Shown: positions 28,217-28,772, counted from the stretch's first letter. The stretch is 64,000 bases of DNA from Escherichia coli (GCF_003334385.1 NZ_QOWN01000003.1); one strand, 5' to 3'. Notes: generated from the letters alone by a model not told the origin. A program made the numbers and translations.

Positions 28217-28421
28217 GACAGTCTTAGTCTTTAAGTTGAGAAGGATGGGAGAAACTTGCTTTCTGGGCGCACTGCCGGAAAGCGAATCCGGTATTACGAA
28301 AGTGGTGGTGCCTCGCTCTAAGGATAGGTGACATCGAAAAAGCGTGCAGAGGAATGTGTGCTTGTGTCTCAGCCCAACGTGAGTGCCTGTTTTTGAGTCG
28401 TTGAGTTCTACAGTCCAAAGT

Positions 28422-28435
28422 GCTGAAACCATTCA
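28422..28435. promoter_or_regulatory. candidate Cra (FruR) operator upstream of pykF
   Basis: GCTGAAACCATTCA fits the Cra half-palindrome consensus (RSTGAAWCSNTHHW); pykF is a known Cra target. Confidence 0.4.
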
Positions 28436-28772
28436 AGAGTCAATTGGCGCGCATTATACGCTGAAATTAATCCAAAAGGAAAACAAAAACAGCGTTTCAA
28501 AAAATATACAACTTGTTAGACAATAAATTGTTATCAAAGATTTAACGTTCCAGGGAAAAGGTTACGCAAAAACGTCACTGTTTGCGCAACGTCTGGTGCC
28601 GAAGTTGTCAGTGTGAGGATAAGTGAAAGTTCATCCGGTGTATAAATATATCATCGCTCAATTGCTACAGTTAAAATAATTTATCGCGTTATTTGTCTGA
28701 TTTTGTTTGATTTTTGTTTAATTGGTTAGATTGATATATGCTGATAGTTGGCATGATAAATAGGTATAAAGA

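Follow-up and report, generated by a model that had tools for sequence, protein, structure and literature searches.

The pykF–fumD spacer of Escherichia coli: a known Cra operator and ynhH, an upstream reading frame kept open across the Enterobacterales

Layout of the pykF–fumD spacer and its promoters

We analysed a stretch of Escherichia coli DNA of 64,000 nt (GCF_003334385.1, NZ_QOWN01000003.1; hereafter the window), in which positions 28217-28772 form the 556-bp intergenic spacer between pykF and fumD. An earlier note had described this stretch as the upstream region of pykF, and its coordinates and sequence proved correct, with the region reaching from pykF to the ATG of fumD. The note had overlooked that pykF is encoded on the strand opposite (minus) to the one on which it quoted the Cra-like motif, and also that the leader holds an annotated ORF, ynhH, in a frame other than that of pykF (Table 1). 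The 556-bp query was contained at at least 98% identity in 5426/5426 complete E. coli genomes, and in every record listed a small CDS lay beneath it, mostly under the name 'protein YnhH'. Nearly all E. coli SNPs in the spacer (-300 to -470) fell within its AT-rich distal half (28500-28772), and the leader was almost invariant within the species. The wider comparison set consisted of 80 pykF loci, one per Enterobacterales species, giving 81 sequences together with that of the window. Elsewhere within E. coli, strain CT01 (NZ_CP081791.1, 1-276) carries an IS1A insertion just past fumD, adjoining the region, and on plasmid pB19374_2 (NZ_CP142917.1, 3001-3916) a truncated pykF and a Citrobacter-like pykF leader that includes ynhH lie beside IS26; the neighbours of this plasmid copy are amino-acid transport and hydrolase genes and TEM-1.

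Table 1. Features of the pykF–fumD spacer and its flanks, in window coordinates
Feature	Position	Strand	Basis or remark
pykF CDS (pyruvate kinase I, 470 aa)	26804..28216	-	ORF list; RefSeq annotation of identical DNA; ATG 28216-28214, stop at 26804
Nearly invariant pykF translation-initiation region (..ATCCTTCTCAACTTAAAGACTAAGACTGTC ATG)	28217..28248	-	alignment; no Shine-Dalgarno
72-codon stop-free extension in the pykF frame	28217..28432	-	ATG 28432-28430, TGA 28435-28433 directly before
ynhH, 64-codon uORF	28224..28418	-	RefSeq WP_240806354.1 'protein YnhH'; UniRef RepID YNHH_ECOLI
Conserved hairpin GCTTTC-CGGCAGTGCGCCCA-GAAAGC, inside the uORF	28258..28283	-	RNAalifold pairs, compensatory changes
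Nucleotide-conserved block CTCTGCACGCT-N7-TGTCACCTATCCTTA	28319..28351	-	alignment; coincides with internal promoter pykFP4-P5
Cra (FruR) operator GCTGAAACCATTCA	28422..28435	.	-206..-219 from pykF ATG; about +12..+25 of predicted TSS
-10 hexamer TATAAT, distal pykF promoter	28453..28458	-	sequence; predicted TSS 28447 (-231)
KdgR-type palindrome TGAAAC-GCT-GTTTTT	28485..28499	-	about -52..-38 of predicted TSS; alignment
Sigma-70-like site TTAACT-18-TATATT, AT-rich part of spacer	28645..28674	-	promoter scan; PMC3946193
fumD (ydhZ), divergent neighbour bounding the spacer	28773..28982	+	NCBIfam NF007630, E 1.4e-45; ORF list; RefSeq

The distal promoter of pykF is marked by a -10 hexamer that reads TATAAT in 39 of 40 aligned Enterobacteriaceae and TATACT in Cedecea neteri, and the predicted +1 sits 6 nt 3' of this hexamer. 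Olvera et al. (2009, PMC2759082) gave this promoter as a predicted pykFP at -231 under FruR, were unable to detect its transcripts by 5'RACE in glucose medium, and mapped pykF 5' ends at -97, -80 and -34. Alternative pykF start sites have also been reported from Salmonella dRNA-seq (PMC3293720). Our promoter scan missed the TATAAT promoter, which has a poor -35 element, and returned as its sole match the more distal TTAACT-18-TATATT; the same pair of hexamers has been reported for the ydhZ–pykF spacer, together with H-NS binding (PMC3946193).

Near the distal promoter, the KdgR-type core TGAAAC-N3-GTTTYN was kept in about 40 aligned Enterobacteriaceae. Operators of KdgR, the regulator of the pectin/KDG regulon, follow a 17-bp palindrome resembling AATRAAAYRNYRTTTYA. 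The pykF candidate is like these operators in that its palindrome (TGAAAC-N3-GTTTYA) overlaps the -35 side of the promoter, and differs from them in the degenerate right half (GTTTTT) of the E. coli copy. By comparative genomics, pykF has been predicted to be a KdgR target (Rodionov 2004, as cited in PMC6127512).

At the other end of the leader, pykF starts translation at a site where no Shine-Dalgarno sequence was found in any of the 81 Enterobacterales loci. The duplex with the anti-Shine-Dalgarno was calculated at -1.3 kcal/mol for E. coli pykF and at a median of -0.7 kcal/mol (range -3.0 to +0.5) over the 81 loci, as against a median of -5.4 kcal/mol for 31 long ORFs of the window. This lack is seen in spite of the high level at which pykF, a glycolytic gene, is expressed.

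The Cra operator and the in-frame extension of pykF

The operator reads GCTGAAACCATTCA on the plus strand and TGAATGGTTTCAGC on the pykF strand, and in its 16-mer form, GCTGAAACCATTCAAG, it spans 28422-28437. It matches the published Cra consensus gcTGAAtCGaTTCAgc (PMC5888115) at 13 of 16 positions and the O-cra oligonucleotide GCTGAAACGTTTCA (PMC11157272) at 12 of 14, and it fits the degenerate pattern RSTGAAWCSNTHHW. This pattern occurred twice in the 64 kb against 0.55 matches expected, with at least two matches in 8 of 100 shuffles, and the 16-mer consensus with three mismatches allowed gave three matches in the window against 1.2 expected. Taken alone, the motif match is not significant and is weak evidence. 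A further fit to the degenerate pattern, AGTGAAACCTTCAT at 27875-27888, lies inside the pykF coding sequence and is probably due to chance. We judged the pykF site to be real because it is identical at the same position in orthologous loci: of the 81 Enterobacterales pykF loci, 79 carried the strict motif TGAAWGGWTTCAGC at this place, 211-279 nt upstream of the ATG, and only a Plesiomonas MAG and Rosenbergiella lacked it.

The operator begins 12 nt 3' of the predicted +1, a placement compatible with repression in so far as the start site, itself a prediction from the literature, is correct. Cra control of pykF is documented by Bledig (1996) and RegulonDB, as cited in PMC2759082, and also in PMC9948231. 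Olvera et al. positioned the Cra site '197 nt upstream of the ATG' (PMC2759082), which differs by about 10 nt from the edge of the 14-mer; since there is no second Cra-like motif at that position, we take theirs to be the same site quoted with its flanks. By its sequence and position, the motif at 28422-28435 is identified as the known pykF Cra operator, and the proposal of a Cra-like site at this point, consistent with known repression of pykF, is borne out by the consensus match, the proximity to the predicted +1, the conservation and, as far as these sources go, the literature. Like other Cra operators of glycolytic genes (pykF, pfkA and edd-eda, and the O-cra of fruB), this is an asymmetric site of LacI/GalR type, 14-16 bp long, with a perfect GCTGAAAC half, and it lies at or downstream of the transcription start as for a repressed gene. 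We saw no difference from these operators; degeneracy of the right half, here CATTCAAG, is shared with many natural Cra sites.

The octamer GCTGAGAC at 28366-28373 on the minus strand, 48 nt downstream of the operator, is an inverted copy of the operator's strong half; the majority of the other genera have GCTGAAAC here. Two roles are conceivable for it, as a further half-site for Cra or as the 3' side of an RNA stem, but since neither arm varies, covariation gives no decision between them. The same applies to potential pairings of the operator RNA GGUUUCAGC with downstream GCUGA(A/G)AC and of UGGUU with the translation-initiation region, in which all sides are invariant, so that covariation neither supports nor opposes them.

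The reading frame of pykF itself had been described as open for 72 codons upstream of the recognized ATG, and exactly 72 were counted. The resulting ORF (26804-28432) would encode 542 aa instead of the 470 aa of PykF, and its first ATG falls inside the Cra motif. An N-terminally extended PykF made in E. coli from this ATG would fit with the position of the codon, 15 nt from the predicted 5' end, and with the intact frame in four divergent E. coli strains and E. albertii. Openness over 72 codons was, however, confined to these two species: the frame closes at 22 codons upstream in Salmonella, Citrobacter and most Enterobacter, and at 2-59 codons in other Enterobacteriaceae. Extensions of at least 60 codons were seen in 4 of 82 pykF sequences against 4.8 expected from shuffles. 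Within the extension the third codon position was the least variable (entropy 0.552) and pN/pS was about 1; no Shine-Dalgarno sequence was found for the extension ATG, an NCBIfam search returned no family for the 72 residues, and each E. coli record that we inspected has the 470-aa protein as its RefSeq annotation. A longer PykF is, on this evidence, highly improbable. With a frequency that equals chance, little conservation and no coding-type pattern of substitution, the extension reads as a chance open frame that is not coding, in agreement with the earlier view of it.

ynhH as a reading frame kept open

The second frame of the leader is ynhH, a CDS of 195 nt from a TTG (28418-28416) to a TAA (28226-28224), which begins 3 nt past the operator and ends 7 nt before the pykF ATG; an alternative in-frame TTG at 28436 would lengthen it to 70 codons. 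The TTG at 28418, which corresponds to about position 1,755,496 of MG1655, lies 29 nt from the predicted TSS and has only a weak Shine-Dalgarno-like match (-2.7 kcal/mol). YNHH_ECOLI has the form of a Swiss-Prot entry name, and NCBIfam held no family for the 64-aa product. Our literature search did not find a primary paper that established YnhH or any paper linking pykF with a uORF, and one paper merely lists ynhH within a deletion. In the versions consulted, ynhH was found neither in Stringer 2021 (text and supplement, by gene name and coordinate) nor in PIRT-seq or Adams 2021.

We followed this frame across the order using a rule fixed beforehand, whereby the uORF was taken to start at whichever ATG, GTG or TTG came first in the 12 nt that follow the operator. 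A start codon was present 2-8 nt past the operator in 74 of the 79 operator-bearing loci, and was mostly TTG, with ATG in Erwinia and one Pantoea, and GTG in Pectobacterium, Dickeya, Brenneria and most Pantoea. In these 74 taxa the uORF was 60-85 codons long, and in 71 of them its end fell in the interval from 15 nt ahead of the pykF ATG to 14 nt beyond the first base of that codon, the exceptions being two Proteus and one Photorhabdus. When stops were counted from the uORF start codon to ATG-15, 62 of the 74 taxa had none in the uORF frame, compared with 2 and 3 taxa for the other two frames and an expectation of 5.4 from shuffling, although relatedness among the taxa means that such counts overstate the number of independent events. 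The mean number of stops per taxon was 0.38 in the uORF frame and 3.07 and 3.42 in the other two. Where indels have shifted the frame (Klebsiella oxytoca, Entomohabitans, Cedecea, Siccibacter, Mangrovibacter and several Erwiniaceae and Pectobacteriaceae), the uORF runs to the TGA of an AUGA overlap with the pykF start, and 14 Enterobacteriaceae with a shifted 3' end still have a full-length uORF when it is followed from its start codon.

Avoidance of stops was thus specific to one phase in about 30 genera, in parts of the leader that otherwise cannot be aligned, and such a pattern is what only a translated frame would be expected to show. It could also have been left by phylogenetic inertia, that is, by one ancestral open frame inherited in a leader conserved for other reasons, given that the taxa are related and that large parts of the leader are conserved as nucleotides. 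We consider this very improbable: the first 20 or so codons and the region 3' of the conserved block (see below) have diverged strongly, with indels, and are still open; groups with pS values of 0.35-0.6 (Pantoea, Erwinia and Pectobacterium/Dickeya) retain the open frame; the other two frames of the same sequences have gathered about three stops each; and frame switches are compensated.

The earlier note had taken the stretch before the pykF ATG as most likely an untranslated leader or promoter. The promoter with its Cra operator and the non-coding nature of the extension stand; the word untranslated probably does not, because the ynhH frame is depleted of stops in the Enterobacterales and is kept open in 71 of 74 taxa. 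A purely untranslated leader or promoter with a Cra operator, in which all ORFs including ynhH are meaningless, would be in keeping with a product of 64 aa that has no NCBIfam family and a peptide that evolves almost neutrally, with a TTG start that has no clear Shine-Dalgarno sequence, with conserved blocks constrained at the nucleotide level, and with short 5' ends that bypass ynhH. We nevertheless regard it as improbable in view of the frame-specific absence of stops (62-71 of 74 taxa), the rescue of the frame after indels by a switch to the AUGA stop, the conserved start codon at a fixed place past the operator, and the existence of the curated protein entry.

In eight loci, from Photorhabdus, Proteus, Xenorhabdus ehlersii and Budvicia, the Cra operator is kept and the start codon or the long uORF is missing; Photorhabdus cinerea retains an open frame, with TTA in place of TTG. 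These loci represent natural 'knock-outs' that could be compared with the rest.

Openness of the frame was accompanied by limited constraint on the peptide. In 13 Enterobacteriaceae, pN/pS (Nei–Gojobori) was 0.72 in the ynhH frame, as against 0.95 and 1.06 when the frame was shifted; pooling within nine groups at genus level gave 0.74 against 0.88 and 0.92, and for Escherichia and Salmonella the ynhH frame gave 0.41. Entropy at the third codon position was only 27% above that at positions 1 and 2. The most conserved stretch of YnhH, ...LHAxxxSPIL..., is invariant even at synonymous sites. It is encoded by a nucleotide block whose part TGTCACCTATCCTTA lies 114-135 nt from the ATG. The uORF of 51 taxa reads this block in frame 1, that of six in frame 0 and that of one in frame 2; since the reading frame differs, the constraint is on the nucleotides, as for a DNA or RNA element, and not on the peptide. 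Selection on the uORF therefore appears to preserve its openness, with the peptide barely constrained.

YnhH might instead be a trans-acting small protein whose amino-acid sequence matters, with its position in the pykF leader serving co-expression only. Its status as a named protein in RefSeq and Swiss-Prot, the values of pN/pS below those of the shifted-frame controls in most groups, and the sharing of ...LHAxxxSPIL... by many genera would all accord with such a role. We find it unlikely, as the pooled pN/pS is close to neutral, the ...LHAxxxSPIL... block is kept even where it is read in another frame (Pantoea, Mixta and Izhakiella), the C-termini differ following frame switches, and the product has no family or domain and no hydrophobic helix in a sequence rich in R, H, S and P.

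Leader elements and a possible cis-acting role for ynhH

The conserved block at 28319-28351 comprises 33 nt that are near-invariant across several families and keep a constant spacing from the pykF ATG. The sigma-S/sigma-70 dual promoter pykFP4-P5 maps to the same place; it was established by 5'RACE and by in vitro transcription with both sigma factors, with its 5' end at a G at 28314 (Olvera 2009, PMC2759082); in keeping with this, the block consists of CTGCAC, 17 nt and CTATCCTTA, and lies 7 nt before the mapped 5' end. Its conservation is, however, stronger than that of typical promoters, which leaves room for an additional role at the RNA level. Part of the block, UCACCUAUCCUUA, resembles the 16S rRNA 3' end UCACCUCCUUA. 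Pairing of this anti-Shine-Dalgarno-like segment with the pykF translation-initiation region was dropped as a candidate, the calculated energy being merely -3.8 kcal/mol.

A second element is the hairpin at 28258-28283, for which 78% of cells were paired as against 31-50% in slid controls, and whose covariation score was reached by 0 of 500 shuffles. The 5'RACE end at -34 (28251) lies 7 nt 3' of this hairpin, which suggests that it may be a processed or protected 5' end. As a whole, the leader is C-rich (29% C, 19% G); its consensus fold is a weak one, at -7.8 kcal/mol, and shuffled versions of the E. coli leader fold better than the leader itself (z = +1.43). A riboswitch-like structured leader was rejected on the grounds of this weak consensus fold and of folding below the shuffles, only the one hairpin having passed the covariation controls. 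An Rfam scan of 27500-29500 at E <= 1 returned nothing relevant, its sole match being a spurious miRNA (E 0.64) inside the pykF CDS. A terminator scan of the region found no terminator-like site, and an amino-acid-sensing attenuator leader peptide of the trpL type was also rejected, in light of this result, of an HHH run that is not conserved, and of the poor folding. The listed Term-seq 3' ends include none within the pykF leader, and hence there is no direct sign of Rho attenuation.

Taken together, we think it likely that the region is a pykF regulatory spacer with a Cra-controlled promoter, a leader filled by a putatively cis-acting uORF, ynhH, and overlapping elements that are conserved at the nucleotide level. 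At low glycolytic flux, Cra bound just past the distal start would block initiation or promoter escape; repression of the distal long transcript by Cra is known biology from the literature. The leader of this transcript, about 230 nt, is not an N-terminal extension of PykF but is almost wholly filled by ynhH, and the internal promoter block (P4-P5) and the covarying hairpin overlap the uORF. Translation of the uORF could act in cis in two ways: terminating ribosomes may be passed to the pykF start, which has no Shine-Dalgarno sequence, by termination–reinitiation coupling, and translation may keep the C-rich, poorly structured leader covered against Rho or RNases. The uORF stop, 7-15 nt upstream of the pykF AUG or within the AUGA overlap, is in the range of re-initiation. 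Our own analysis supplies the layout, the conservation, the scarcity of stops in one frame and the missing Shine-Dalgarno sequence; Cra regulation and the 5' ends come from published work, and a coupling or shielding role is what we infer.

We therefore put forward, tentatively and with a little less than even confidence, that ynhH is an order-wide cis-acting uORF and not primarily a protein gene, on which ribosomes load near the 5' end and terminate at the pykF start, there to re-initiate and/or to shield the leader, and that it sets pyruvate kinase synthesis on top of Cra and is bypassed by the internal promoters. Counting against a strict need for the uORF are the 5' ends at -97, -80 and -34, the failure to detect the -231 transcript on glucose, and the lack of a listed Term-seq 3' end. 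Transcripts with these three 5' ends are without the uORF start, and hence much pykF mRNA may be translated without the uORF.

Several leader uORFs of E. coli (mdtU–mdtJI, speFL–speF, the topAI leader uORF and pyrL/pyrBI) offer points of comparison. As in these, a long 5' leader is taken up by a small ORF; what appears to be conserved is that ynhH is translated, and not a diffusible product, and the spacing between its stop and the main start is within reach of re-initiation. The leader also resembles Rho substrates in being C-rich and poorly structured. ynhH differs from these uORFs in having no conserved C-terminal arrest motif, regulatory codon run, terminator/antiterminator pair or Term-seq 3' end in the leader, and in its length, since 64 codons is long for a leader peptide; it also has a TTG start and a cis role that is inferred.

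Neither the Cra operator nor the long leader is new, and the annotation of ynhH existed before. That the uORF is preserved throughout the order, together with a pykF start lacking a Shine-Dalgarno sequence, is a modestly interesting lead, but not a surprise in kind. pykF nonetheless holds a central place in glycolysis, is a textbook case of Cra control and is often chosen for metabolic engineering, and a caution arises for such work in that 'pykF promoter' fragments or 'pykF RBS' swaps (as in PMC7041290) cut through or carry the uORF. Across the Enterobacterales, ynhH behaves as an ORF that is kept open rather than as a conserved protein, and its preservation before a pykF start of this kind provides a simple and testable hypothesis of post-transcriptional control of pykF.
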